Part shown: piece after piece, positions 1-47,977 of the stretch
How the letters are laid out: the number at the start of each line of letters is the position of its first letter
Numbering within the stretch: position 1 is the stretch's first letter
Virus record (IMG/VR): IMGVR_UViG_3300046820_001270
Span: 64,001 to 128,000 of that record
Source of the DNA: a virus
Lineage: Duplodnaviria; Caudoviricetes
Length of the DNA stretch: 64,000 nucleotides
Strand: one strand, 5' to 3'
Position numbers and translations under genes: made by a program
Notes under the pieces: generated by a model
Seen by the model: only the letters and a program-made list of their open reading frames with translations
Databases searched by the model: none
What the model was told of the DNA's origin: nothing

Positions 1-2
1 AT

Positions 3-863
3 GATGATGCTAATATAGTAAATAATAGATGGAATGTTATCAGAAGTATTGATATATTATATGGTGGTGAATTAGATGTTTTAAATATGGGATCATATAA
101 AACATCCGTATTTGTTGATGTAGATGCGTGGGCGGATGAATATGAATCAGATGGTACTACACTCACTAAAAAAAGTAGATATACATGGGTAAATAAGCCA
201 GTGTACAATACAGGTGATTTTAATTATCATACAAATGGTGAATCATTAGTATTGGGTAGTGATGGGACATTATTAAATTTAAATAATTTACAAATCGGTA
301 ACCCAATAGCGTCGGTTAATTTTACAGACGAAGACGGATTATCACCAAATTCATACGATGCAGATAGTTTTAGAACTCCACATAGACAATGGGGTAGTAC
401 AATAGAACAAGCACAATCAACTTTAACTAATACCCCATCGGAAGTATTAGATATAACATCAAAAACAGTTTCAGAAATAATGTTAAAAATAACATTAGAA
501 AATGGAGTTAGTTGGAATGAACCAAGAGATACAATTTACTTAATCCAAGCTGCAAATTCAAATGTTACTCATTTTGACAGATTAAATACGGTAGAAATTG
601 GAGATAAAATGGTTACTTATAATAAAACTACATTAGAATTATCAACTTTAGTAATTACAGGGATTGAAATAGTATATGATGAGATCATCGGATACAATAT
701 AAATATTCAACCATCGGATCTATTTTTAGTTGATGTAACTACCGATTTATTTGTGGTACAACATAATTATAGTTGTGACTTTTGCGGTTGGTACTCTTGT
801 GGTGATTATTTTTGTAGCTATAACTGTCCTGGATGTAATCAAGGACTTCCCCCTAAAGTTTAA
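3..863 (+). CDS. Hint (intein-like) domain protein with C-terminal six-cysteine peptide; 5'-truncated by window edge
   Basis: Frame open from position 3 (DDANIVNNRW...). Hint block-A-like HTNGESLVLGSDG...LQIGNPI from 228 and block-G-like VVQHN (CAT AAT 762-767), then 31 aa with 6 Cys. Confidence 0.7.
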   Translation, partial: DDANIVNNRWNVIRSIDILYGGELDVLNMGSYKTSVFVDVDAWADEYESDGTTLTKKSRYTWVNKPVYNTGDFNYHTNGESLVLGSDGTLLNLNNLQIGNPIASVNFTDEDGLSPNSYDADSFRTPHRQWGSTIEQAQSTLTNTPSEVLDITSKTVSEIMLKITLENGVSWNEPRDTIYLIQAANSNVTHFDRLNTVEIGDKMVTYNKTTLELSTLVITGIEIVYDEIIGYNINIQPSDLFLVDVTTDLFVVQHNYSCDFCGWYSCGDYFCSYNCPGCNQGLPPKV

Positions 864-890
864 ATTAAATATAAAATTAAATAAAAAATT

Positions 891-1034
891 ATGCAAGAAT
901 TACCTTTAACGAAATTAGAAAGACCAAATCAACACATTAAGGTTCAAATCAATTCACTTTCAACTGATTTAAAAAATAAAGTTAAAGTTGCGGTTCAAGA
1001 AGTTGTAACTAAGATTAAAGAAAAACATCTTTAA
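891..1034 (+). CDS. 47-aa hypothetical protein (not in ORF track)
   Basis: ATG 891 after A-rich leader, MQELPLTKLERP...KIKEKHL, TAA 1032-1034; fills the gap between co-oriented genes. Confidence 0.7.
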   Translation: MQELPLTKLERPNQHIKVQINSLSTDLKNKVKVAVQEVVTKIKEKHL

Positions 1035-1048
1035 TATATTGATGCATT

Positions 1049-1891
1049 ATGAAATTATTTGCATTTGGTGATAGCTGGACTGCCGGCCAAGGCTGTAATT
1101 TAAAAGTAGAGAATAGTTTTACCGATGAAAATGAACGAAAGATATATAGAAATAGTATGTCTTGGCCTAAATATTTATCCGAACATTTAAATGTAGATTT
1201 TGAAAATTTAAGTAAATCTGGATCATCCAATAAAGAAATTTTTGACACTATTATTGAAACCATCAAATCGAACATCATAAAAGATAATGATTTGGTGGTT
1301 ATTATGTGGAGTTCGTCGTTAAGAGATAATACTCCCTTTTTTCCAAATGGAGAATGTCACATTTGGGGCAAAACTCATATAGAAAACAAATGGAAATTTA
1401 ATTGGATTATAAACTCAATTAGAAATTCAAAAGGAGAGTTAAAACACGAATCTGATTTAAAATATAATCATTTTTTAAAATCTTATAAACAATTTTACAT
1501 TGATGACTTATATAACGATTCATACTATAACATAGTAAATCAAAATTACATTCTATTCATTCAAAAATTATTAGAATCGTATAATATTAATTATGTTTTT
1601 TGTGATGCGTTTGATTTTATGATCACTAAAAACATAAAGATTGATTTAGATAAAACACATTTTATTAATAAATCCAATTATTATAAATTTGGAGAAGTAA
1701 CAGCTAAAGACTTTTTAATTTCATTAGACCCAACTGATTCGGATTTATGGGAGGACTCTTCAAAATGGACAAATATATCCGGAAAACACCCAAATGCAAA
1801 AGGATATCAAAAAATATCTGATGAATTATACGATTTTATAATAAAATCAAATATTATAAAAAAGAACAAATCAATAATTAAAATGTTATAA
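1049..1891 (+). CDS. SGNH/GDSL hydrolase-family protein
   Basis: FGDSWT, NLSKSGSSN and C-terminal HPNAKG motifs. Confidence 0.8.
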   Translation: MKLFAFGDSWTAGQGCNLKVENSFTDENERKIYRNSMSWPKYLSEHLNVDFENLSKSGSSNKEIFDTIIETIKSNIIKDNDLVVIMWSSSLRDNTPFFPNGECHIWGKTHIENKWKFNWIINSIRNSKGELKHESDLKYNHFLKSYKQFYIDDLYNDSYYNIVNQNYILFIQKLLESYNINYVFCDAFDFMITKNIKIDLDKTHFINKSNYYKFGEVTAKDFLISLDPTDSDLWEDSSKWTNISGKHPNAKGYQKISDELYDFIIKSNIIKKNKSIIKML

Positions 1892-2436
1892 TGGAATTTT
1901 CAATAAATAAATTTTTTGACAAAGAAGAGTGTAATTCCATATTAGAATATGTGGATGGTATAGGTGTGCCATTTTCTTATAACCCAAACGAAACATGGGA
2001 TTGTAAAAGAATATATGATGAAAGTTTTAAAACGAATATTCTTAACAGATTAATATTGAATTACGAAAAAAATAAATTTAAATTATGGTTTGATTTAAAT
2101 GAGTTTGACATAAAAGATATTAATGTTAGTTTAACAAAATATTATGACGGTAGATGGTTAGATTTGCATTTAGACTCCACATCTCAATTCACATCTGTTA
2201 TAATATTAACAGATGAATTTGACGATGGTAGATTTGCATTGTCAAATACATATGAAGATATTAATAATACCGAAAAATATCATTTAGATATTGGACAATC
2301 AATATCATTTGACGGTAGTAAAATTTATCACGGAGTAATGCCAGTTAAAAAAGGTTTAAGATGTGCATTAAATATATGGACAACTAATACCGATTTTAAA
2401 TATAGACCTTTAAAAAATAATAAAAGTATTATATGA
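1891..2436 (+). CDS. 2OG-Fe(II) oxygenase (prolyl-4-hydroxylase-like)
   Basis: HLD ... YHGVMPV ... R facial triad and 2OG-binding Arg. Confidence 0.85.
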   Translation: MEFSINKFFDKEECNSILEYVDGIGVPFSYNPNETWDCKRIYDESFKTNILNRLILNYEKNKFKLWFDLNEFDIKDINVSLTKYYDGRWLDLHLDSTSQFTSVIILTDEFDDGRFALSNTYEDINNTEKYHLDIGQSISFDGSKIYHGVMPVKKGLRCALNIWTTNTDFKYRPLKNNKSII

Positions 2437-3086
2437 GAATAGCAATAGTGTGTAATGGTAGGAGCGGATCTAGCTCAATGATTAATTATATAAATTGTTG
2501 TTTGTTAAACGAATATAAAAAATATAACATTTTTTTTGAACCATTTAATTATCTGAACATCGACGCGTCCGGTAAACTAAAAGTAATTGATGAAATAGTA
2601 AATAAAAAAGATGTGTTATTGAAAACCTTCATAGATAATGATAATTATCCATATGAATCATTCGATAATATTGAACAATATTGGGAATGGGTATATTCAT
2701 TTTTTGATAAAATAATAGTATTAGAAAGAAAAAATAAAAGATTACAAGCGGAATCGTTAGTTTATCATATTAGAATATCTAAAAACAGAACTGTATCACC
2801 ACGTTGGCTTAAACCTAAATACTATGATTTAAACGAATTAGATGAACAACATATAATAGATTTAACAAAACATTTGGAATCTGAATCTTTAGTTTTAAAA
2901 TCAATTTCAAATAAAGGATACCCATTATTTTATTATGAGGATATATTTGTGGACAAAGATATTGAAACAATAAAACGTTTAAACGAATATTGTGAGATAG
3001 AGTATAATCAAATATGTATTGATGAATGGATTAATTCACCATATAAAAAAGTAAGAATAGAAACAAAATCTAATAAATTAATATGA
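2433..3086 (+). CDS. sulfotransferase-like protein
   Basis: N-terminal RSGSS 5'-phosphosulfate loop, EPF motif, LERKN, YYEDIF. Confidence 0.6.
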   Translation: MRIAIVCNGRSGSSSMINYINCCLLNEYKKYNIFFEPFNYLNIDASGKLKVIDEIVNKKDVLLKTFIDNDNYPYESFDNIEQYWEWVYSFFDKIIVLERKNKRLQAESLVYHIRISKNRTVSPRWLKPKYYDLNELDEQHIIDLTKHLESESLVLKSISNKGYPLFYYEDIFVDKDIETIKRLNEYCEIEYNQICIDEWINSPYKKVRIETKSNKLI

Positions 3087-3607
3087 AAATTTTAATAATC
3101 GCATTACCAAGAACAGGTTCTACAAGTTTAGGGGAACTGCAGACCAAAAAACACAATATAAAAAAATATTTATTTGAACCATTTAATCCAAAAAATACTG
3201 AAAGATATAATTCTAACGAAAGTAATGTTGTAGTTAAAACACTTGTATTTCAAATTTTAGAGGACATTAAAGAAGAAAATAGAATTGAATGGTTGATAAA
3301 TTTAACAAAAGAATTTGATGAGGTTATTTTATTGACAAGAAAAGATTTAGTAGCTTGTGGAGAAAGTTGGGCGTATTTAAATTATTTTCACGAAACAAAA
3401 AAGTTTATGTATTATGAGAATTATTTATGGAAATCAACTCCATATGATACATCAGCATATAATCAAATACTTTCATTTAATGAAGATTTAAAATTTATTT
3501 CCAAAAGTATAAATGTACCTATAACATATTATGAAGATATTTTTGACATAAACGGAGAAGGAAGATTAAGAAAAGGTAATAGAACAAATACATTAAATAT
3601 TATATAA
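3083..3607 (+). CDS. sulfotransferase-like protein (paralog of preceding gene)
   Basis: PRTGSTS loop, FEPFN, LTRKD, YYEDIF shared with upstream gene. Confidence 0.6.
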   Translation: MKILIIALPRTGSTSLGELQTKKHNIKKYLFEPFNPKNTERYNSNESNVVVKTLVFQILEDIKEENRIEWLINLTKEFDEVILLTRKDLVACGESWAYLNYFHETKKFMYYENYLWKSTPYDTSAYNQILSFNEDLKFISKSINVPITYYEDIFDINGEGRLRKGNRTNTLNII

Positions 3608-4671
3608 TGATTAATTTAAATGAATATGTTTGTACCGTACCGTTTACATCAATGGAAATACATGATGAATCATATTTTCTTTGTTGTGCTAGTTGGTTAA
3701 CAAAATACTTACCGAAAAATCAGCCAATGGATGGTATGTGGAATTCGGAAGAATCTATTGATATAAGAAAATCGGTAATGGATGGAACATATCGTAATTG
3801 TGATAAAACACAATGTCCATATCTGTCACAGTTAATTAACTTAAATAATAAGAGTTTAGGACCTATTAAACATATAAATGAATTACCCGAAGACATAAAA
3901 AAATATGTAAACGAACAAAATGGTATTATGGAAACTGGACCGAAAATAGTTCACATGTCATTTGATAGAAGTTGTAATTTAAAATGTCCATCATGTAGAA
4001 TAGAATCTATAATGGCAAATGGTGAAAAATTAGAAAAAATAGATATAACAATTGAAAAAATGGAGGAGTTATATTCCAACTCGATTGAAACAATTTATTG
4101 TTCTGGGACGGCGGATCCATTTGCTTCTAAATCGTATAGAAATTATCTTAAAAATTTTAATTTTAAAAAATATCCAAATTTAAAATATATTCATCTACAT
4201 ACAAATGCAACTTTATGGGATGAGAAAATGTGGGAAGAAATGAAAAATATACATCCATATGTTAAAACTTGTGAAATAAGTATAGATGCCGCGAGAAAAG
4301 AAACATATGAAAATGTAACTAGATTAGGTGGAAATTGGGATAAATTAATATCAAATTTAAAATTTATATCAACAATAAAAAGTTTAACAAGTGTTAAGTG
4401 TTCATTTGTTGTTCAACAAAGCAATTATACCGAAATGACTGAATTTTTAGAACTAATACATGATATTTTTGGTATGAAAACAAAAGTGTTTTTTGGTAAA
4501 ATAACAAATTGGGGAACTTTTAGTGATGGACAATATAAATTATTAAAAGTGTGGGACAATAGTCATCCCGAGTTTAATCTATTTTTAGAAGAGTTTAAAA
4601 AAGTGGCATTAAATCCATTTGTATTTCATAATATGTATGAATTATTGGACAATAAAAAGTCTTTAATATAA
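3607..4671 (+). CDS. radical SAM protein with N-terminal SPASM/twitch-like Cys cluster
   Basis: CNLKCPSC (CxxxCxxC), GTADPF, TNAT, SIDA; N-terminal C...CC...C...C. Confidence 0.9.
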   Translation: MINLNEYVCTVPFTSMEIHDESYFLCCASWLTKYLPKNQPMDGMWNSEESIDIRKSVMDGTYRNCDKTQCPYLSQLINLNNKSLGPIKHINELPEDIKKYVNEQNGIMETGPKIVHMSFDRSCNLKCPSCRIESIMANGEKLEKIDITIEKMEELYSNSIETIYCSGTADPFASKSYRNYLKNFNFKKYPNLKYIHLHTNATLWDEKMWEEMKNIHPYVKTCEISIDAARKETYENVTRLGGNWDKLISNLKFISTIKSLTSVKCSFVVQQSNYTEMTEFLELIHDIFGMKTKVFFGKITNWGTFSDGQYKLLKVWDNSHPEFNLFLEEFKKVALNPFVFHNMYELLDNKKSLI

Positions 4672-4707
4672 ATTGACATTTTAATATATTTTCATTATAT
4701 TATACCA

Positions 4708-7700
4708 ATGAAAATACTTGCACATACATGTTTTATCGGAGTCACAGGATATGCTAACCACGCAAAGTCCTTTTTTTGTGCTCTGAACAAATACCATACA
4801 GTTAAAGTTAGGAACTCAACAATCGGAAGTGGTTGGAAGGGGATGAATAACACACCTCACGATGATGAACCATATATCACCGATGAGATGAAGGATATGT
4901 TAATTCTACAAACCCTAATCAATGGTGATGGTAGTAGATCTCATTTACCTATGTATGGTTATAAGAATGATTTTAAACCTGATGTTCATATTGTATTGGT
5001 GGATATGAACAACTATTATTTTCACGAGAATTACGATGGATATAAGATAGCATATAACGTTTGGGAATCAACACGTTATCCGCAAGATTTCTTTAAAAGA
5101 TTAATGTACTTTGATGAAGTATGGGTACCAACACAATGGCAATTTGATTGTTTGGTTGAACAGGGTTATCCTAAGTCTAAAATATCAATAGTTCCTGAGG
5201 GAGTTGATGTGGGGACATTTAAACCATTAAGTAAGATACCAAAGAAGGACAAATTTAGGTTCTTACATTTTGGTAGATGGGATTATAGAAAAGGAACTAC
5301 AGAGGTTTTAAGGACATTTGGTGAGGTTTTTAAAGGTAGAACTGATGTTGAATTAATCGCGTCAGTTGAAAACCCATACGCGTATGACGGAATTAAAACA
5401 ACCGAAGAAAGAGTTAAGTACCATAATATTAACGACGAGAATATAAAGTTTATTAAGTTCACACCAAGAGAGGAATATGTGAAGTATCTACAAGAAGGTG
5501 ACGTGTTCGTTACTTGTGCCCGTAGTGAAGGGTGGAACTTACCGTTGATTGAATCGATGGCTTGCGGAACACCATCATTATATTCAAATTGGGGAGGTCA
5601 GTTAGAATTTGCGGAAGGTAACGGTGTTCCCGTTAAGATAGATGGTTTAAGACCCGCAAATGTAGAACATAAACATTTTCCTGGTGAATATTGTGAACCA
5701 GATTGGAAAGATTTGGGAGAACAAATGTTAAATGTAATGAATGATTATAAAAAGTTTAAATCATTCGCAATAGAAGAATCAAAAGAAATTCATATAGATT
5801 TCAATTGGGATAAAATAGCAAAAACAGCATCAAATATATTAATGGAAAAGAAAACAATTAGAGAAGATGATTTTTATAAATCAGGAAAATTCTACACAGA
5901 TGTAGATGTATTAGAAAATTTAGGAGACATTAAAGACTACCAAGGAGGAACACTTGAAGTGGCGAATAAGTTTGGTTGGCCAAGAGCAATATATCATGAG
6001 ATTTATAATTTAATGGATTACTATAAGCGTCCAAATAATGACAAAAGAATTTACGATGGTGATGTTGTTGTTGATTTAGGTGGGAATATAGGAATTTTTA
6101 ATAGATGGGCATATAGTCAAGGTGCGTCTAAAGTAATTTCATTTGAACCAGATAGAAGATATTTTGAACTATTATCTAAAAATGCAGATCCCCGTTCTAT
6201 TTTATATAATGGAGCCGTTGCCGACGAGGTTGGTGAGATGGTTCTTTCTGAAACAGGTCATCTCGGTGGATCTACATTACTTGAAACAGAAGAAATGACA
6301 AACACATACACAGTTAAAACATATACATTAAATTATTTGTTTGAAACTGGTGTAGTAAATAAAATAGATTTTTTAAAGATGGATATTGAAGGTGCCGAGC
6401 ATCATGCGTTTTTAGGAATATCAGATGAAAATTTATTAAAAGTTAGGAACATCTCAATGGAGTATCATCATAATTTATTGGGACACAATGTTGAACTGAG
6501 AGAAAGTTTAATTCAAAGAATGTCAAGATTAGGATTTAGTCATTATACTCTGTTTATGGGCGGAAACGATAATTTACAGATGTTATATTTTGAAAGAAAA
6601 GAAAAATCAATTAGAAAATCTAATATTCATTTTGTTGATGGTCCATTTGCTGAAGTGAACGAAGACGTGGAACATTTATACAATGTTCAATTTATTGATG
6701 GAGACACCGGTAAAATTGAATATGAAACGAATATCAAGAGTAATCATTGGACAAGAGCATCTAAAAAATATTATGTTAATTGGATTGTAAAAATTAAAGG
6801 TATTGATAATGATTTTTATAGAGAAGAGAAATTTAATCCACAAGGACAAAGAATTATGATTTGTTTTGAATCAAAATCGTTAGGTGATAGTTTAGCTTGG
6901 ATCCCATATGTAGAAGAATTTAGAGTTAAAAATAATTGCCAAGTTATTTGTTCAACATTTAAAAATGATTTATTTAAAGGACAATACCCTGAAATTGAGT
7001 TTGTTGAACCTGGAACGGGAGTTAATAATATATATGGTTTATTTAGATTGGGGTTATTTCAAGACGATGAAAGAAAAATAAAATATGATAAACACCCATC
7101 TAACCCAAGGGTAGAACCTTTAGGTAAAATGGCTTCAGACATATTAGGACTTGAATTTGAGGAGATAAGACCAAAATTACCAAAATTTAACAAAAAGAAA
7201 ACAAAGAGAGTTTGTATAGCCATACATTCAACTGCTCAGGCAAAATATTGGAATAATCCAATAGGATGGCAACAGGTTGTTACCCATTTAAAGAAAAAGG
7301 GATATGAAGTTAGATTATTATCAAGGGAAGAGGATGGTTATATGGGAAATAAAAATCCACAGGGTGTTAAACAACAAAAACCAGGACCGATTGAGAAAGT
7401 TATTGAAGTTCTAGAAGAATCTGAGTTGTTTATAGGTATTGGAAGTGGTTTAAGTTGGTTGGCATGGTCAGTAGGTGTACCATGTATTATTATATCGGGA
7501 TTTAGTGAAGAATATAGTGAACCTATGTCGGGAGTATCAAGACTTATTAATAAGGATGTGTGTCATGGATGTTGGAATGTATACGATTTTAATCCGGGGG
7601 ATTGGAATTGGTGCCCCGTTCATAAAGACACTAAACGACAATTCGAATGTTCAAAATCAATCAAAGGGGACGATGTAATAAAAGAAATCGAAAAACTTCT

Positions 7701-7710
7701 ACCAATTTAG
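4708..7710 (+). CDS. three-domain fusion: GT4 glycosyltransferase + FkbM-type methyltransferase + AAH/TibC-like autotransporter heptosyltransferase
   Basis: GT4 EGWNLPLIESMACG; FkbM DLGGNIG...FEP...KMDIEGAE; BAHT-like FESKSLGDSLAW...GIGSGLSWLAW and four-Cys CHGC...WCP...FEC. Confidence 0.85.
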   Translation: MKILAHTCFIGVTGYANHAKSFFCALNKYHTVKVRNSTIGSGWKGMNNTPHDDEPYITDEMKDMLILQTLINGDGSRSHLPMYGYKNDFKPDVHIVLVDMNNYYFHENYDGYKIAYNVWESTRYPQDFFKRLMYFDEVWVPTQWQFDCLVEQGYPKSKISIVPEGVDVGTFKPLSKIPKKDKFRFLHFGRWDYRKGTTEVLRTFGEVFKGRTDVELIASVENPYAYDGIKTTEERVKYHNINDENIKFIKFTPREEYVKYLQEGDVFVTCARSEGWNLPLIESMACGTPSLYSNWGGQLEFAEGNGVPVKIDGLRPANVEHKHFPGEYCEPDWKDLGEQMLNVMNDYKKFKSFAIEESKEIHIDFNWDKIAKTASNILMEKKTIREDDFYKSGKFYTDVDVLENLGDIKDYQGGTLEVANKFGWPRAIYHEIYNLMDYYKRPNNDKRIYDGDVVVDLGGNIGIFNRWAYSQGASKVISFEPDRRYFELLSKNADPRSILYNGAVADEVGEMVLSETGHLGGSTLLETEEMTNTYTVKTYTLNYLFETGVVNKIDFLKMDIEGAEHHAFLGISDENLLKVRNISMEYHHNLLGHNVELRESLIQRMSRLGFSHYTLFMGGNDNLQMLYFERKEKSIRKSNIHFVDGPFAEVNEDVEHLYNVQFIDGDTGKIEYETNIKSNHWTRASKKYYVNWIVKIKGIDNDFYREEKFNPQGQRIMICFESKSLGDSLAWIPYVEEFRVKNNCQVICSTFKNDLFKGQYPEIEFVEPGTGVNNIYGLFRLGLFQDDERKIKYDKHPSNPRVEPLGKMASDILGLEFEEIRPKLPKFNKKKTKRVCIAIHSTAQAKYWNNPIGWQQVVTHLKKKGYEVRLLSREEDGYMGNKNPQGVKQQKPGPIEKVIEVLEESELFIGIGSGLSWLAWSVGVPCIIISGFSEEYSEPMSGVSRLINKDVCHGCWNVYDFNPGDWNWCPVHKDTKRQFECSKSIKGDDVIKEIEKLLPI

Positions 7711-7742
7711 AGATATTTTTTATTTAATTTGAAAATTCAAAG

Positions 7743-7749
7743 TATTTAT
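7743..7749 (+). promoter_or_regulatory. putative late-promoter motif TATTTAT
   Basis: Upstream of tail fibre ATG 7772; same motif precedes about 14 virion-type genes. Confidence 0.5.
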
Positions 7750-7771
7750 ATGAGTATAACAATATAACCAT

Positions 7772-9670
7772 ATGAAAATATTTGACGCAAACATCTCGGG
7801 ATCCCTAAACGTATCGGGCGCAGCTCGTTTCTTCGGTGATCTTACGGTAGACGGAACAATAAATGCTGCGATTAGTGGTACATCCACAAACGCACTATCC
7901 CTAAACACAACGGGTTCTGCTCGTTTCGCTACCACAGGTAGTAACCTATTCACAGCAAACCAAACAATTAGCGGATCTATAATCCCATCTGTTAATAATG
8001 CTTACGATTTGGGTGATGCGACACATTGGTGGAAGGACATCTATGTATCTACAGGATCTATCTTTATTGGTGGTATAAAAGCTATCAGTACAAACACTGA
8101 TGGTACAATCCAAATAGGTACTCAAGTTGTACAAACTTCAGCAAGTTTAGCATCAGTTGGTCTACCAGTTCCTCCAACAGGTTCTGCAGGATCAAGTCAA
8201 AGTACATTAGTAGGTAGTCAAAATATTACAGGTAGTCAATCTATCACTGGTAGTATGTCAGTAAGTGGTAGTATGGTTGTAACAGGTTCTTTATTTATTA
8301 ACGGAACCTCATATACTGCGGCTTCTTCAGGAACTTCAGGAACTTCAGGAACTTCAGGTTCTTCAGGTTCTAGTGGATCTAACGGTTCATCAGGAACTTC
8401 AGGATCTAACGGAACAAATGGTTCTTCAGGAACTAGTGGTTCTAACGGTACTGACGGTTCTTCAGGTTCTAACGGAACAAATGGTTCTTCAGGAACTAGT
8501 GGATCTAACGGAACAAATGGTTCTTCAGGAACTAGTGGATCTAACGGAACAAATGGTTCTTCAGGTACTTCAGTAACCGTTTCAGGTACAAACAATGTAC
8601 TTGGTAAATTCAGTTCAGGAACTATGGTTAACTCAACAATAACTGACGATGGTACGACAGTTACTATTGGAGGTAATTTAACGGTTAATGGTACAACCAC
8701 TTCAGTCAATTCAAATACAGTTAATATTGGTGACAATATTTTAATTCTTAATTCAGATGAAGCGGGTGTTCCATCACAAAATGGTGGTATTGAAATTGAA
8801 AGAGGAACATCTACAAACGCAAGTTTAATATGGGACGAAACAACTGATGTGTGGGAAGTTGGTTTAGCGGGTGCTGAACTTGAAATTGCAACCATTAGTG
8901 GAACACAAACACTTACTAACAAAACAATAAATGGTTCACAATTAGTTGACTTGTCGGTTGCAAATGGTAAATTGACAAACTCATCAGTAACCGTTTCAGC
9001 AGGAACGGGTATGAGTGGAGGTGGTGCGGTATCATTAGGTGGTACTGTAACATTAACAAATGCGGGTGTAACGTCAATCACAACAAATACAGGTTTAAGT
9101 TCAAACGTAAGTGCGACAGGTGCGGTTACAATCACAAATACAATAACCAATAATAACCAATTAACCAATGGTGCTGGATATCTTACAACGGCTGTAACTT
9201 CAGCGGTTGGAGGTACGGGTGTTGGTGTGAGTTCGGGAACAGGAGCGGTTACATTCTCAATCGGTCAAGCGGTTGCAACATCATCAAACGTTCAATTTAA
9301 CTCATTGGGTGTAGGAACGGCAGGTCCTGGAACAACAGGTTTAATCAGAGCAACAAATGACGTTATCGCTTACTTCTCATCAGATGAGAGATTAAAGGAA
9401 AACTTTGAAAATATCCCTAATTCTTTAGATAAGTTAAAACAAATTAACGGTTATTCATTTGATTGGATCCCTATGGAAGGTATTCACGAAAATGAAGGTC
9501 ACGATATCGGTGTTAAAGCACAAGAAATTGAAGCTGTTTTACCTGAAATTGTTACAACAAGAGAAAACGGATATAAGGCGGTTAAATATGATAAATTAGT
9601 TGCTTTATTGATTGAAACAAATAAAGAATTATTAAATCGTATTGAAGCTTTAGAAGCTAAAATAAAATAA
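7772..9670 (+). CDS. tail fibre with C-terminal peptidase S74 intramolecular chaperone
   Basis: Gly/Ser/Thr-rich body; SSDERLKEN cleavage motif, IGVKAQEIE, VKYDKL and terminal coiled coil. Confidence 0.9.
   Translation: MKIFDANISGSLNVSGAARFFGDLTVDGTINAAISGTSTNALSLNTTGSARFATTGSNLFTANQTISGSIIPSVNNAYDLGDATHWWKDIYVSTGSIFIGGIKAISTNTDGTIQIGTQVVQTSASLASVGLPVPPTGSAGSSQSTLVGSQNITGSQSITGSMSVSGSMVVTGSLFINGTSYTAASSGTSGTSGTSGSSGSSGSNGSSGTSGSNGTNGSSGTSGSNGTDGSSGSNGTNGSSGTSGSNGTNGSSGTSGSNGTNGSSGTSVTVSGTNNVLGKFSSGTMVNSTITDDGTTVTIGGNLTVNGTTTSVNSNTVNIGDNILILNSDEAGVPSQNGGIEIERGTSTNASLIWDETTDVWEVGLAGAELEIATISGTQTLTNKTINGSQLVDLSVANGKLTNSSVTVSAGTGMSGGGAVSLGGTVTLTNAGVTSITTNTGLSSNVSATGAVTITNTITNNNQLTNGAGYLTTAVTSAVGGTGVGVSSGTGAVTFSIGQAVATSSNVQFNSLGVGTAGPGTTGLIRATNDVIAYFSSDERLKENFENIPNSLDKLKQINGYSFDWIPMEGIHENEGHDIGVKAQEIEAVLPEIVTTRENGYKAVKYDKLVALLIETNKELLNRIEALEAKIK
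8324..8566 (+). repeat. coding tandem repeat: 27 X-Y-Gly triplets (9-bp units, 36-bp higher-order unit)
   Basis: SSG/TSG/SNG/TNG triplets; two exact adjacent 36-bp copies ggaacaaatggttcttcaggaactagtggatctaac near 8474-8545. Confidence 0.95.
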
Positions 9671-43019: not shown

Positions 43020-43250
43020 ATGAATAGATACAACTGTTTATTAATTTTACCTGAAGGTACTAAAGATATAACAATATTAGCGGATACGGTACATCCTGAT
43101 TCGACATGTGCAACAAGATTTCAAAAAAAAGTTGAGGTAATAGGTCTTTATGGGACACCTGAAACATCTTTTCAATTAGTGAGTCAATATCCAACAGATA
43201 AATTTGTTATTGAATCTATTGATTACAATGTAATAGATAACGATGAATAA
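43020..43250 (+). CDS. hypothetical protein
   Basis: 76-aa ORF in operon. Confidence 0.65.
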   Translation: MNRYNCLLILPEGTKDITILADTVHPDSTCATRFQKKVEVIGLYGTPETSFQLVSQYPTDKFVIESIDYNVIDNDE

Positions 43251-44640
43251 AATTTTATTTACATTAACTTTATTTGTATTTGTTAGTTGTTCTAAAACGG
43301 CACCAATAATTAAAGAGGTCGTTAATAATCCAATTGATAATAAACCAATTACCACATCACAATTTCAAGGTTATAAAGTACAACCATTTAATAAAAAAGA
43401 TGAAGTTAAATATTGGAGAGATTGTGGTGTGATGTGGGATATAATTGCCGATAAATTTTTGGTTAAAATAGATGGAAAAATTGGTTCATATTTTTTACCA
43501 CAAATAACAGTTGGAGATTTTAATAATGATGGTTGGATCGATATTTTTAATCCAGGTACTGGTTTATTTAAAAATGAAGTTGTAGATAATGTTGGTTGGT
43601 TAATTTGGAATACAACAACTAAAACATTTGATAACAAAAATCTGTTTAATGATAAGACATTAAAATCATTTGGTGGTAATCAAAGAAGAAGTGTTACTTT
43701 AGATTTAAATAAAGATGGATATAGTGATGTTGTCATATTCGATAGTGGAGACGATGTTCCATTGCCAGGAACCATTCCCGAATTACAACCAATAAGAATT
43801 GTTTTGTCAGATGGGAATGGAGGATATTCATTAAATAATATTCAAACTACAAGTACAATACTTTATAATCATTCTGGTGATATTGGAGATTTAAATAATG
43901 ACGGTTATCCCGATTTAGTTTCAGCAACGGGAGGATCACTTTTCATTTCATGGGGAATACCCAATTACCCATATTTTTCAACAAACGTAACGTTATTTGA
44001 TTTATGGAAAAAAACTGATAATGGATTTGGTGAATGGTTTAGAGAAGCCTCAGGTCAAGTTTATAATGTTACAATTGGAGATGTCGATAAGGATGGAAAC
44101 GAAGATATGATTTTGGGTTGTAATGAAATGAAATATCCATCAGCTTATAATTTAAGTGGGTTTGATTTTACAACTAAAATTATACTAAATCAAGGTAGAG
44201 GAGAATTTAGTAAAAGAAGTTTAATTAATTTACCCTATTATACAAAAGACGTTCAAAATTTCTTAGCAAACGATTTTAGAATTGTGGATATTAATAACGA
44301 CGGTCTGAATGATATAATATCAACGGGTAGTGTGAATTATGATGATTGGTCAATTTATACTTATATGCAAACCTCCAAAAATTCATTCTCAATCGATACA
44401 AGTAAATTTATTTATACGATAAACACCAATCGTAAATCAAATTCAATAGGATTATCTTGGAAACCTTGGTTAATATATTATGATTTTAATGGAGACGGTA
44501 AGAAAGATATATCATATATAGATGCTCACGATTTTTGGAATAACTCACTTAAAAGAAAAACTATATTCATTAGGAAAGGAAATAACTTTGAAGAAGAGGA
44601 TTTTTACAAATATGACAATTACATAAACAAACTTAAATAA
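43243..44640 (+). CDS. lipoprotein with FG-GAP/VCBS beta-propeller repeats
   Basis: LFVFVSC-SK; six DxNxDGxxD-type loops. Confidence 0.85.
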   Translation: MNKILFTLTLFVFVSCSKTAPIIKEVVNNPIDNKPITTSQFQGYKVQPFNKKDEVKYWRDCGVMWDIIADKFLVKIDGKIGSYFLPQITVGDFNNDGWIDIFNPGTGLFKNEVVDNVGWLIWNTTTKTFDNKNLFNDKTLKSFGGNQRRSVTLDLNKDGYSDVVIFDSGDDVPLPGTIPELQPIRIVLSDGNGGYSLNNIQTTSTILYNHSGDIGDLNNDGYPDLVSATGGSLFISWGIPNYPYFSTNVTLFDLWKKTDNGFGEWFREASGQVYNVTIGDVDKDGNEDMILGCNEMKYPSAYNLSGFDFTTKIILNQGRGEFSKRSLINLPYYTKDVQNFLANDFRIVDINNDGLNDIISTGSVNYDDWSIYTYMQTSKNSFSIDTSKFIYTINTNRKSNSIGLSWKPWLIYYDFNGDGKKDISYIDAHDFWNNSLKRKTIFIRKGNNFEEEDFYKYDNYINKLK

Positions 44641-44987
44641 TGGATTATAGTAAAATATTTTTAGGTGTTATATTTGGACTAATGGGTCAAGTTGGGACAT
44701 TTATACAATTACAGGGATCATATAAGTACGGTTGGTATGAAAAATACACATGGATGGTCATATTGGCAAGTGTCCCACTTGGTTGGTTATATATTAAATC
44801 CGTAAATTATTTCATTGCAGGGTTCGGTGGTCAGATATGGCCAAGTCGTCTACTTGGATTTTCAGTGGGGATTATAGTTTTTACACTAATGAGCCATTAT
44901 CTATTTAAAGAACCGTTAGATCTTAAAAACGGAATTTGTCTATTATTAGGGTTTAGTATATTAATGATCCAGTTATTTGTTAAATAG
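44640..44987 (+). CDS. small multi-pass membrane protein (DMT/SMR-like)
   Basis: Four hydrophobic helices, FKEPL before last helix. Confidence 0.65.
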   Translation: MDYSKIFLGVIFGLMGQVGTFIQLQGSYKYGWYEKYTWMVILASVPLGWLYIKSVNYFIAGFGGQIWPSRLLGFSVGIIVFTLMSHYLFKEPLDLKNGICLLLGFSILMIQLFVK

Positions 44988-45032
44988 CCGTAAAAATATC
45001 TAAAATTTATGATACATATCGTAGAATTAGAA

Positions 45033-45039
45033 TATTTAT
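45033..45039 (+). promoter_or_regulatory. putative late-promoter motif TATTTAT
   Basis: Upstream of ATG 45044. Confidence 0.5.
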
Positions 45040-45043
45040 GTTT

Positions 45044-47977
45044 ATGGCAATTACAAACAAAATCAAATACGTAAGCGGTAACACCATTCATAATGGTTCA
45101 ATTACCAATAATAACGTCGCCTTAGGTGTAGATATGGATCTAGATTATGGCGAAACAATCAATACAGGATATTGGGCGGGAGTTAATCCATCCAATAATG
45201 GTTATACCATTTATTATCTTGACGGTACCAATCAACCAAGAATTATGTCGGCAGATGACGACAATGCTCTTATCTTCTTCGCCAACGAATTTGGTGCTTC
45301 AAATGTAACAACCGTAACGGACGCATTACTATACTTCAAAGATAATGCGGGTTATTTCATAACCAACCGTAAAGTTGAATCAATCACAACCTCAGGGATG
45401 ACTTTAATGTACGACCCAGGTTTGGTTCAATCATATCCTAAGTCAGGAACTACAATGAGTAACTTGGGTAGTGTAGGTTTAGGTAATAATGGTCCAGCAA
45501 TGTACTTGTCAGGAACAACTTACAATTCTGAAAAGGGCGGTTCTTTACTTTACTCTAATACGGGTAACACCTTTTCTGAGGCCGCAACAACTGAATTTTT
45601 AACTGATTTCACATATAATATTTGGTTTAAGGCAACAGCATTTGAAACAAATAACATTTTGATGTCACGTGGATATGGTTTATGTAAATTGTCTTTAGGT
45701 AAAAGTCTTGATAACCCAACACTTAGTAGAGTAGAATTTTATGATAACAACACATCGTTAGATATGTATTCGGTAAGTGGTTATACAATTGGACTTGACA
45801 CTTGGACTAACGTTACTGTTAAACATATTGAAGGAACCTCAACACAAGTTTTTGTAAATGGAGCGCTAGTTCTCTCGGACACAACAACAACTAATTTATA
45901 TAACGAAAATATTAGTGATCTTTTTATCGGTGGTGAACGTGGTAGTAATGGTAATGGATTTACTGGTTACATAGGACACGTTGCTTATTATGATAGGGCA
46001 TTAAGTGTTTCTGAGATTGGGAAGAACTACAACGCTTTACGTGATAGATACTACGGTGCATCGGGCGGTGAATCATTCTTTATAATGGCACAAATGCCGG
46101 GTAGTAATAACTTCGGTTATGTTATATTAGAAGCAACAACAGGAACGGCATCTGAAGTAATAGATACAGGTTTAGACCGTGATATATATTATCAAGATGA
46201 AATACTTCAAGTAAATCACGGAGGTTATTCATTATTATTTGGAAATGATGATACCGGTGATAAAAAGGTATTATTCATTGACGCTTTTGGTACTCTTGTT
46301 GATACGTTTGATTTCCCTAATACCAACTGGAATTCTAGTCGTGCTAGTGGTTTTGTAAATATATTTACCGATAATGCGGGTGGTGTAATGAAGTTTTTTG
46401 ACGGAACATCAGTTGGAACATATACTTGGGACCCAAGTTCTGAAGAGGCCAATTTTAACAATAACTGGGATCCGACATCGATAGATAAAACGTTTGCAAT
46501 TTACACAAGAAACACCAATACGAATGTGGTAACTTGGAAACTTGCAAATGCTCAGACAGGTGTTGTAAACTTGAGATCGTACAATGATGCTGATTTTACT
46601 ACTGAACCGATAATTTACACTAGTGGGAATTATGTGATTCTACCATTCCAAGATGATAATACTTTACTACACAGTAGTTTGGAGGTTTATGGTACTGATG
46701 GAACATTAAAACATACACAAAGTTTAACCGGATTAACGTTAAATAGTTGGAATGCTCGAACTTTTGGAACCGGAAAATTCTCAATACTTTATACGAATAA
46801 TAGTGACGAAGATGTCGATTATCATTTATATGCATACATCGAATCCACAAATTCATTTATATCGACAACTCACGCAAGAGGAGCTAATTATCGTAATAAT
46901 GATGTATATTCAGAATCTATAGATTACGTAAGTGAAAACACTAATTGCGAAAGTGTTCATTATGTGTTCCGTTCTGATAGTACCCATAATAATAATGATT
47001 TAAATTATTACGATTACATCGATTACGTTTCCTTATTTGAGGGAGAAAGTAATTTTATAACTAGTGTTTTCGCCAATAATACATCTAAGGGAATAGCCAG
47101 AGAAGGTGATACCACCAAATATTATAATGATCTTGTTAATACTGGTGACAATAAATTAAAATCTATGTTGATTACTCCGTCAGGATTTACATACACAGAA
47201 ATAGTTACGGATGTTACAACGGTTACCTATATTAGTCAAGATTTATTAAATAATGATATACTATATTTATTATATCTTAATGATGTAAACAACGAATATC
47301 ACTATTACGTAATAAATGGTACAACAGGTGCAATAAGAGACACATTAACACATACAACCGTAAATGATTGGAATGATTGGTATAATACAGAATTTGATAC
47401 ATTATACATTAAAAACGTCGACACGGCAGAAGCTTGGTATATGTGTAGAAGTCAATATGAATTTGCACAAACAACAAATTATGAAAGTGACACAAATGCT
47501 AGTGATTTTTACAATGAAGATGGTTGGACTGAAGAACCTGTTTTAGTAATGTATAATGGAGACACCGATGGTAAGTGTAGAGTATTGACACCTGATGGGA
47601 TTTCAGATGAGTTTACATTACCATTGTCTACACAATGGGGATATGATTTAGTACTTGGTAAATCCTTTTTCACTTGGAGATATCATAATGCTGATGGTTT
47701 TCCATCAATGAGAATATACGATTTTAGTGGAAATATACTTAATGATTATGTTAGTCCTTTCTCGGTAGATGTAAATGGGAATTTCCACCAATATGGAACA
47801 ATTGGTAATTTGGCTTATGTTGTTGCGGGTGAAGGATGTCCTGATAATCAATGTGGAACATTGGTACCGACAATCCTTAATACAGACGGAACAACGTCAT
47901 CTCGAACAATATTCTATAATAACATTGGTAGCTACTACACATCGGCAACTGACTACTTCTGGTGGGATAACTGCTAA
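45044..47977 (+). CDS. large LamG/concanavalin-A-like domain protein, probable virion appendage
   Basis: FTYNIWFK...WTNVTV...QVFVNG...FIG...FTGYIGHVAYYDRALSVSEI.KNYN; beta-rich C-terminal part. Confidence 0.8.
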   Translation: MAITNKIKYVSGNTIHNGSITNNNVALGVDMDLDYGETINTGYWAGVNPSNNGYTIYYLDGTNQPRIMSADDDNALIFFANEFGASNVTTVTDALLYFKDNAGYFITNRKVESITTSGMTLMYDPGLVQSYPKSGTTMSNLGSVGLGNNGPAMYLSGTTYNSEKGGSLLYSNTGNTFSEAATTEFLTDFTYNIWFKATAFETNNILMSRGYGLCKLSLGKSLDNPTLSRVEFYDNNTSLDMYSVSGYTIGLDTWTNVTVKHIEGTSTQVFVNGALVLSDTTTTNLYNENISDLFIGGERGSNGNGFTGYIGHVAYYDRALSVSEIGKNYNALRDRYYGASGGESFFIMAQMPGSNNFGYVILEATTGTASEVIDTGLDRDIYYQDEILQVNHGGYSLLFGNDDTGDKKVLFIDAFGTLVDTFDFPNTNWNSSRASGFVNIFTDNAGGVMKFFDGTSVGTYTWDPSSEEANFNNNWDPTSIDKTFAIYTRNTNTNVVTWKLANAQTGVVNLRSYNDADFTTEPIIYTSGNYVILPFQDDNTLLHSSLEVYGTDGTLKHTQSLTGLTLNSWNARTFGTGKFSILYTNNSDEDVDYHLYAYIESTNSFISTTHARGANYRNNDVYSESIDYVSENTNCESVHYVFRSDSTHNNNDLNYYDYIDYVSLFEGESNFITSVFANNTSKGIAREGDTTKYYNDLVNTGDNKLKSMLITPSGFTYTEIVTDVTTVTYISQDLLNNDILYLLYLNDVNNEYHYYVINGTTGAIRDTLTHTTVNDWNDWYNTEFDTLYIKNVDTAEAWYMCRSQYEFAQTTNYESDTNASDFYNEDGWTEEPVLVMYNGDTDGKCRVLTPDGISDEFTLPLSTQWGYDLVLGKSFFTWRYHNADGFPSMRIYDFSGNILNDYVSPFSVDVNGNFHQYGTIGNLAYVVAGEGCPDNQCGTLVPTILNTDGTTSSRTIFYNNIGSYYTSATDYFWWDNC

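Follow-up and report, generated by a model that had tools for sequence, protein, structure and literature searches.

A phage gene that joins an ATP-grasp ligase to a nucleophile-less Hint domain proposed to cut off a cysteine-framework peptide

Known Hint domains act in splicing, in hedgehog processing or as peptidases that release toxins. The gene considered here raises the question of what such a domain can still do once its N-terminal nucleophile is gone and a short cysteine-rich segment stands directly behind it. The gene runs into the start of a 64,000-nucleotide (nt) stretch of phage DNA (positions 64,001 to 128,000 of the IMG/VR record IMGVR_UViG_3300046820_001270; hereafter the window, numbered from its first letter). 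Its product, P0083, is a fusion of a ligase, a Hint domain lacking the N-terminal nucleophile (Hint*) and a peptide. It comes with a small subunit of its own, and its gene is part of a cassette found widely among uncultured jumbo phages. We consider a Hint* domain positioned to cut off the cysteine-framework peptide as the best available reading. The layout of ligase, Hint* and cysteine peptide appears new, being described neither in Pfam or PHROGs nor in the literature searched, on ATP-grasp with Hint in phages and on Hint-released cysteine-rich peptides.

Window positions 3-863 (+) encode the last 286 residues of the 504-residue P0083, the frame being open at the 5' edge of the window. An earlier note on this DNA, made from the letters of the window, had placed the N-terminal part of the gene outside it, and this part was recovered from a 334,429-bp contig (L089) that matches the window without mismatch over 6863 compared bases. 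The gene spans 1515 nt (L089:6001-7515) and starts 651 nt before window position 1, and the fragment encoded in the window (P0001) equals P0083 residues 219-504 letter for letter. On this identity, window positions 1-863 (+) are the 3' part of the gene, with the end of the ATP-grasp domain, Hint* and the cysteine tail. The translation, the start of the Hint region at nt 228, the His-Asn at 762-767 and the composition of the 31-residue tail are all as first read.

Hint* extends from His294 to Asn473 of P0083 (window 228-767, +), HTNGESLVLGSDG beginning at nt 228 with His76 of the fragment. The region is a true Hint fold, an assignment made because three lines agree: the real Hints present in long relatives, a profile match and a model match. 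Neither P0001 nor P0083 matches a curated Pfam Hint model (PF01079, PF07591, PF14890, PF13403, PF14623) at expect values (E) up to 10. However, a family profile built from 52 sequences (residues 77-256) aligns in hhalign with a profile of 11 bona fide Hint domains at a probability of 97.6% (E 3.7e-12), block by block from the first strand through the terminal His-Asn; these 11 stem from the family's own long members and do match Pfam PT-HINT and Intein_splicing. The AlphaFold2 model of the fragment has a predicted local distance difference test score (pLDDT) of 85.4, exceeding 90 over most of Hint*. Foldseek places it with PDB structures of the hedgehog Hint (1at0), a Clostridium bacterial intein-like (BIL) domain (2lwy), 2in0 and dozens of inteins (E 1e-6 to 1e-4), with Tetrahymena BIL2 (6y75, 6tmm) also among the top matches and template-modelling (TM) scores by target of up to 0.78. 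The Hint-like region without N-terminal nucleophile suspected in the earlier note is borne out by these structures, at the profile level through the Hints of the family and not through a curated Pfam model.

The chemistry left to the domain can be judged from residue counts over 166 full-length relatives, the distant members of which share 20-30% identity. Position 1 is His in 138 of them, Cys, Ser and Thr never being among the five commonest residues there, and is preceded by Tyr (Y293) in 152. The Thr and His of block B are lost, the His column holding Ser (83), Asp (25) or Asn (12). Block F:4 is occupied by N, S, D, T or A and block G:5 by Met or Gln, while the residue following the domain (+1) varies between S, A, D, N, P, Y, I, V and F and is Tyr in the window. 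At the end of block G, His472 is kept in 164/166 and Asn473 in 165/166 relatives (window 762-767, +), both being invariant in the 70-sequence alignment A7. Class 1 intein or hedgehog chemistry is ruled out by the lack of Cys/Ser/Thr at position 1 and of the block-B Thr-x-x-His. The same holds for class 2 inteins, which need an attacking +1 Cys, and for class 3 inteins, whose Trp(B:12)-Cys(F:4)-Thr(G:5) triad is here without its F:4 Cys and G:5 Thr (residue definitions from PMC4031507 and PMC2807308). With the N-terminal residues lost and a variable +1 residue that is mostly no nucleophile, splicing is excluded, and cleavage at Asn473/Tyr474, the proposed cyclisation site and scissile bond, is plausibly the only reaction that Hint* can still carry out. 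The penultimate His and terminal Asn are those that characterise type A BILs and asparagine peptide lyases; type A BILs with a C-terminal His-Asn and without a +1 nucleophile give mainly cleavage products, through Asn cyclisation (PMC4031507). From the conservation and the architecture described below, we infer that Hint* indeed cleaves at this bond.

The segment that would be cut off consists of 31 residues, Y474-V504 (window 768-863 including the stop codon, +), as established by direct count and family alignment. This tail, YSCDFCGWYSCGDYFCSYNCPGCNQGLPPKV (nt 768-860, stop at 861-863), contains 6 Cys, 4 Tyr and 1 Trp in the framework C-x2-C-x4-C-x4-C-x3-C-x2-C, is rich in aromatic residues and has Lys as its penultimate residue. 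Five Cys columns are 96-99% conserved in the 166 relatives and the sixth moves by one position. Gly485 is semi-conserved, as are aromatic residues at positions 478, 481 and 487, with W in 115/166 and Y in 40/166 at position 481; the aromatic content amounts to 18%. Lys or Arg is found within the last four residues in 143/162 tails. The number of Cys is even in 161 of 162 (6, 8, 10, 12, 14 or 16), so pairwise disulfides fit better than Cys4 metal sites. Across 49 representatives at 50% clustering the tail measures 23 to ~137 residues and carries 6-16 Cys. In AlphaFold2 (52-sequence alignment) it has a pLDDT below 40 and is not placed against the body, and an ESM Atlas search with the 31 residues returned no usable match.

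The tail also evolves differently from the rest of the protein. Compared pair by pair, identity is 86% for the ATP-grasp domain, 82% for Hint* and 56% for the non-Cys tail positions, and the ratio of non-synonymous to synonymous substitution rates (dN/dS; 13 phylogenetically disjoint pairs) is 0.10, 0.08 and 0.29, respectively. Hint* is as constrained as the ligase part, and the non-Cys tail residues change ~3.5-fold faster than the body, representing relaxed or fast evolution. The hypervariable peptide with fixed Cys that had been envisaged is recognisable in the conserved Cys and the fast residues between them, but not as a target of diversifying selection. Nor is the tail an invariant zinc finger, as the identity of its non-Cys positions and its varying length and Cys number show, and an integral finger of this kind is weakened as a candidate by the even-Cys rule and the length variation.

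Further insight comes from what follows His-Asn in the relatives, counted over the 49 representatives, with P0026 and P0052 corrected by eye. The Cys tail forms the C-terminal end in 32 of the 49. In 6/49 it is followed by a canonical Cys1...His-Asn Hint, giving proteins of ~640-765 residues; the added Hint begins C-F-x-x-G-T, ends I-L-V-H-N-K-K, matches PT-HINT (PF07591) and Intein_splicing, and has just KK or KKF as its own C-extein. Another 8/49 carry an S74-type self-cleaving chaperone behind the tail, starting directly after '...K/SD' (pattern 'K/SDxxxKxN...GVIAQEL...'), for one of which a weak precomputed Pfam Peptidase_S74 match is available. Both kinds of add-on cut at their own N-terminus, which would restore a tail that ends near Lys as in the short forms. 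The Cys segment is in this way bracketed by self-cleaving modules, which we take as support for a free peptide. The sole representative without His-Asn (P0033, with Tyr-Ser instead) is also without the Cys tail.

The N-terminal half of the protein is of a different nature. P0083 residues 1 to ~285 form, as judged from models, an amide ligase with a circularly permuted ATP-grasp fold, of the glutathionylspermidine-synthetase/YgiC/eukaryotic glutathione-synthetase type. The AlphaFold2 model of the first 250 residues of an ortholog has a pLDDT of 92 and matches PDB structures of YjfC/YgiC, of human, yeast and plant glutathione synthetases and of glutathionylspermidine synthetase in Foldseek (E 3e-5 to 1e-2; 7uk6, 7uk8, 2hgs, 1m0w and 2io7 among them), with TM-scores by query of just 0.41-0.48 and ~10% identity. 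The matching AlphaFold database clusters are named glutathionylspermidine synthase or ATP-grasp. An E-x-N motif (E21-x-N23, in 'LEINTN') is located at the very N-terminus, as the permuted order predicts. Conservation is complete or at least 96% for D9, E21-x-N23, R114, K176, K203 and R232, whose catalytic equivalence is read from the motif and not from residue-level superposition; D124 is invariant or nearly so, and G239 and L242 are invariant. The catalytic-looking residues appear intact, and the domain is the best conserved part of the protein. The window itself holds the final ATP-grasp strands and the linker (residues 219-293; window 3-227, +), with R232, G239, L242 and Y293, as assigned from the AlphaFold2 model, Foldseek and conservation. 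Pfam yields no above-threshold match for the N-terminal domain, the sub-threshold ones being RimK (best E 0.0067, 6/47 members) and CP_ATPgrasp_1, and a PDB profile search with it found nothing; Pfam, PHROG and PDB-sequence searches with the fragment and the full protein likewise returned nothing meaningful. What these permuted ATP-grasp relatives have in common is the ligation of an amine to a Cys-containing peptide, at its C-terminal carboxylate. For YgiC and YjfC, activity as peptide-spermidine ligases was reported by Pederick et al. 2023, as cited in PMC12568646.

The ligase half is likely accompanied by a subunit of its own. A 47-residue partner is encoded 27 nt downstream of the P0083 gene (window 891-1034, +), as identified by its motif and BLASTP homologs, and an open reading frame (ORF) of 43-52 residues lies 11-38 nt 3' of the gene in every locus examined. 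The partner family follows the pattern ERP..IK..P.S..K.K..AFQ.VV..IKxKHL, in which K43, H46 and L47 are invariant. It was found by strict motif in 53/58 distinct loci, with divergent copies in the remainder, and by BLASTP in 25/25 well-flanked loci. The predicted complex of P0083 with the partner scores 0.87 against 0.44 for the best control, a mark that is reached by 58/80 solved complexes and 2/110 mismatched pairs, counts that apply only approximately here, since the prediction used our own alignments. The runs share at least 86% of contacts, with a partner pLDDT of at least 79. The predicted contacts lie on the ATP-grasp sheet (residues 6-35, 122-143 and 224-255) and on Hint* (345-441), touching residues that alternate with the invariant D9 and R232, and on the partner side they involve residues 5-47. 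From this model we take the 47-residue protein for a structural subunit and not for a substrate.

A second small gene belongs to the same cassette. A Cys protein of 95-110 residues (C-x2-C...C-x2-C-G-C-P...N-P-C-P) is encoded just upstream in 24/25 well-flanked loci, corresponding to a 95-residue protein at L089:5591-5878, upstream of the P0083 gene; in two distant loci the gene is found downstream instead. It has no family match, and ESM Atlas gives viral hypothetical clusters only. Three distant loci (L004, L006 and L007) retain just the 47-residue and 95-residue genes as neighbours and have neither a halogenase nor a radical S-adenosylmethionine (SAM) gene. The well-flanked loci otherwise contain a homolog of a flavin-dependent Trp halogenase (22/25) and of 2-oxoglutarate (2OG)-Fe(II) oxygenases (24/25), co-occurrence that is weak evidence given that the 25 loci are from related phages with general synteny. 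The radical SAM gene of the window (3607-4671) has a homolog in only 5/25 of these loci and is absent from L001 and L003, which rules out a radical SAM/SPASM maturase as a conserved partner and makes it unlikely that this enzyme introduces the thioether constraint once suggested for the peptide.

The family is widespread. A HMMER scan of 1.84 billion representative proteins gave 67 relatives of the fragment, mostly of ~500 residues and aligned to it over their residues ~220-500. A word-indexed search with the closest full-length relative gave 557 protein clusters at E of 1e-5 or below, P0083 among them and none of them named, and 277 further family loci were found in IMG/VR, on contigs of up to 333 kb. 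In 50,697 deposited phage genomes tblastn found no match to the fragment, the long relative P0009 matched solely through its terminal Hint, and blastn with window positions 1-8000 matched a methyltransferase only. No relative was detected in 185,579 prokaryote species genomes by two pattern scans, the sensitivity of which is limited to a few conserved peptide patterns. The absence from deposited phage and prokaryote genomes and the size of the contigs assign the family to uncultured large phages.

We propose that this jumbo-phage gene encodes a self-processing enzyme-peptide fusion operating as follows. Asn473 would cyclise to a succinimide, as in type A BILs, pretoxin HINT domains and other asparagine peptide lyases, and the cut at Asn473/Tyr474 would liberate a 31-residue, six-Cys, aromatic-rich peptide of ~3.4 kDa. 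The freed peptide would most likely form three disulfides outside the reducing cytoplasm. The ATP-grasp ligase, working in a predicted complex with the 47-residue product of the next gene, would probably act on the peptide, most plausibly at its Lys-hydrophobic carboxyl end; we infer this step by analogy, as the structural relatives ligate the C-terminal carboxylate of Cys-containing peptides. We regard the chances that Hint* self-cleaves and releases the Cys peptide as about even. The autoprocessing precursor of the earlier note is in this respect partly upheld, through the retained His-Asn with the Cys peptide behind it; it is not a plain precursor, since the N-terminal half is an ATP-grasp ligase.

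Several known systems share parts of this arrangement. As in type A BILs, in which cleavage outweighs splicing, the downstream fragment being set free when Asn cyclises (PMC4031507), Hint* combines the Hint fold with a C-terminal His-Asn and no +1 nucleophile, and 2lwy is among its top fold matches. Type A BILs, however, have a Cys1 and form an N-terminal thioester, whereas Hint* has His1, no block-B His and an ATP-grasp fusion. PT-HINT proteins (PF07591) have a Hint peptidase immediately ahead of their variable C-terminal cargo, the release of which is ascribed to it (PMC3482391); Hint* takes a like position, and the real C-terminal Hints of the long members match PF07591. Unlike the PT-HINT toxins, the Hint* of the window is without a PF07591 match, has an ATP-grasp N-terminus in place of a secretion or trafficking domain and precedes a Cys peptide of ~30 residues rather than a toxin fold, in a phage context without a recognisable immunity gene. 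The ligase resembles glutathionylspermidine synthetase, YgiC, YjfC and eukaryotic glutathione synthetase, its best structural matches, and has at its N-terminus an ExN motif that is read as the one for Mg, but at ~285 residues the domain is far smaller than these permuted ligases and seems to need the separate 47-residue subunit. In the long members a small cargo lies between a Hint ending in His-Asn and a Hint starting with Cys, in likeness to engineered SICLOPPS and to Tetrahymena BUBL, where flanking BILs conjugate the cargo through its C-terminus without ATP (PMC8616854); the protein of the window differs in lacking the downstream Hint, and its upstream Hint is without Cys1. The S74-like modules behind the tail, finally, recall the S74 chaperones of phage tail fibres and endosialidases. 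The copy in the window has no such module, and the only S74 domain of the window is in a collagen-like fibre gene (7772-9670).

Several observations weigh against peptide release followed by ligation. In P0010, P0058 and P0062 (3/49 representatives) the Cys tail is missing and a linker of 2-7 residues leads to one or two real Hints, meaning that release of a peptide cannot be the point there. P0062 (L005:430-2727), in which Hint* is followed by two tandem canonical Hints and which has radical SAM/SPASM and B12-radical SAM neighbours, has a layout that does not suit a simple peptide-release function. No evidence of positive selection was obtained, the aggregate tail dN/dS of 0.29 being below 1, where diversifying selection would be typical of toxins or effectors. 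P0083 has no signal peptide, so disulfide formation would have to await lysis or rely on a dedicated oxidase. Asn cyclisation in inteins is normally coupled to upstream steps, and uncoupled C-terminal cleavage can be slow. The predicted complex says nothing on the substrate of the ligase, and the tie between ligase and tail is the fusion itself only.

These points give room to an explanation in which the tail is never released and instead serves the ligase as an integral Cys-rich metal or redox module, for example with Zn on the two outer CxxC pairs, the Hint being a domesticated scaffold without catalysis in which His-Asn is kept for folding or some other purpose. We consider this unlikely, but worth serious attention. 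The strict Cys framework with its semi-conserved Gly485 and aromatic positions, the overall purifying selection on the tail and the already dead N-terminal catalytic centre of Hint* are all compatible with it. It accounts poorly for a His-Asn that is near invariant while the other catalytic Hint residues have drifted, for tails that vary several-fold in length with Cys counts that are even and not multiples of four, for the self-cleaving modules that replace or follow the tail in relatives, for a tail that AlphaFold2 leaves undocked and for the joint loss of His-Asn and tail in P0033. Doubtful, and less probable again, is a pathway like that of ribosomally synthesised and post-translationally modified peptides, with the tail as core peptide tailored by the halogenase, the 2OG-Fe(II) oxygenases and the radical SAM enzyme before or after Hint release, and the ATP-grasp domain as recognition or maturase domain. 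Six Cys in ~30 residues resembles SCIFF/ranthipeptide precursors, and the frequency of halogenase and oxygenase homologs, the conserved Trp/Tyr at position 481 and the aromatic content of the tail fit such tailoring. Yet the radical SAM gene is rare and also occurs beside a tail-less member (L005), the synteny of the related phages makes co-occurrence count little, the most distant loci keep only the two small neighbours, and the enzymes may tailor sugars or virion proteins in an island that is rich in glycosyltransferases and fibre genes.

The real mini-Hints that insert at the same C-terminus in relatives, sometimes two in tandem, suggest mobile-element behaviour, and together with the ATP-grasp domain being the best conserved part they could be taken to mean that Hint* and tail are a functionless relic of an old BIL or intein insertion on what is merely an ATP-grasp ligase of a virion- or glycan-tailoring island. 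This is the least probable of the explanations considered: a relic would hardly be as constrained as the ligase, persist in at least 557 protein clusters and 277 IMG/VR loci or share with the ATP-grasp domain the predicted contacts of the partner (through Hint residues 345-441), and its His-Asn and six Cys would not stay at 96-99%. Release of the peptide by Hint* might, conversely, be extended to a defined product. Hint* would expose the alpha-amine of the peptide, and the ATP-grasp domain with its 47-residue subunit would activate the conserved Lys-hydrophobic C-terminus as an acyl phosphate. This end would be joined either to the new N-terminus, closing the chain head to tail into a cyclotide-like molecule with three disulfides, or to an amine carried by a polyamine, by the virion or by a host target. 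Long forms would obtain the equivalent activation, as a thioester, from their downstream Cys1 Hint, a natural counterpart of SICLOPPS or BUBL. This full scheme is a long shot, only marginally better placed than the relic.

If C-terminal cleavage is the remaining activity of Hint*, the family would represent a widespread Hint lineage of which nothing but a C-terminal asparagine lyase is left, permanently fused to a ligase that depends on ATP and to a variable Cys-framework peptide. Should both cleavage and ligase action be true, this would constitute a new path to small constrained peptides without a leader peptide or separate protease, possibly a new class of peptides that phages make as effectors or to decorate the virion, and a compact pair of enzyme and self-cleaving tag for protein engineering. 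Two small phage ORFs that are ubiquitous also gain a function that can be tested.

The surroundings of the gene offer some additional observations. The 122 nt preceding it (L089:5879-6000) are extremely AT-rich, with repeated TATATA/AAATTA motifs, and may be a phage promoter. The halogenase and the 2OG oxygenases (window 1049-4671 and L089:3232-5589) accompany a cassette whose tail has a conserved Trp/Tyr, which may reflect halogenation or hydroxylation of the peptide, or mere synteny. We note that many unrelated proteins of this island (window 1049-3607, and neighbours in L001, L003 and L004) share ends that are basic and then hydrophobic (...KNKSIIKML, ...NNKSII, ...KSNKLI, ...KNKKSII, ...NNKTLL), and that the ends of the tail (...PPKV), of the 47-residue protein (...KEKHL) and of the inserted Hints (KK, KKF) loosely resemble these C-terminal tags.

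The window as a whole has ~30% G+C, and besides many glycosyltransferases and an endolysin-like peptidase its phage genes encode a collagen-like tail fibre. The gene of this tail-fibre-like protein (7772-9670, 632 residues) specifies collagen triple-helix repeats and, at the C-terminus, a Peptidase_S74 intramolecular chaperone. Positions 4708-7710 encode a 1000-residue protein in which a GT4 glycosyltransferase is fused with an FkbM methyltransferase and a GT9 heptosyltransferase-like domain and which is syntenic in relatives, sometimes as two genes of ~900 residues. Further downstream, at 43243-47977, an FG-GAP repeat protein of 465 residues and a LamG/concanavalin-like protein of 979 residues may be virion adhesins.

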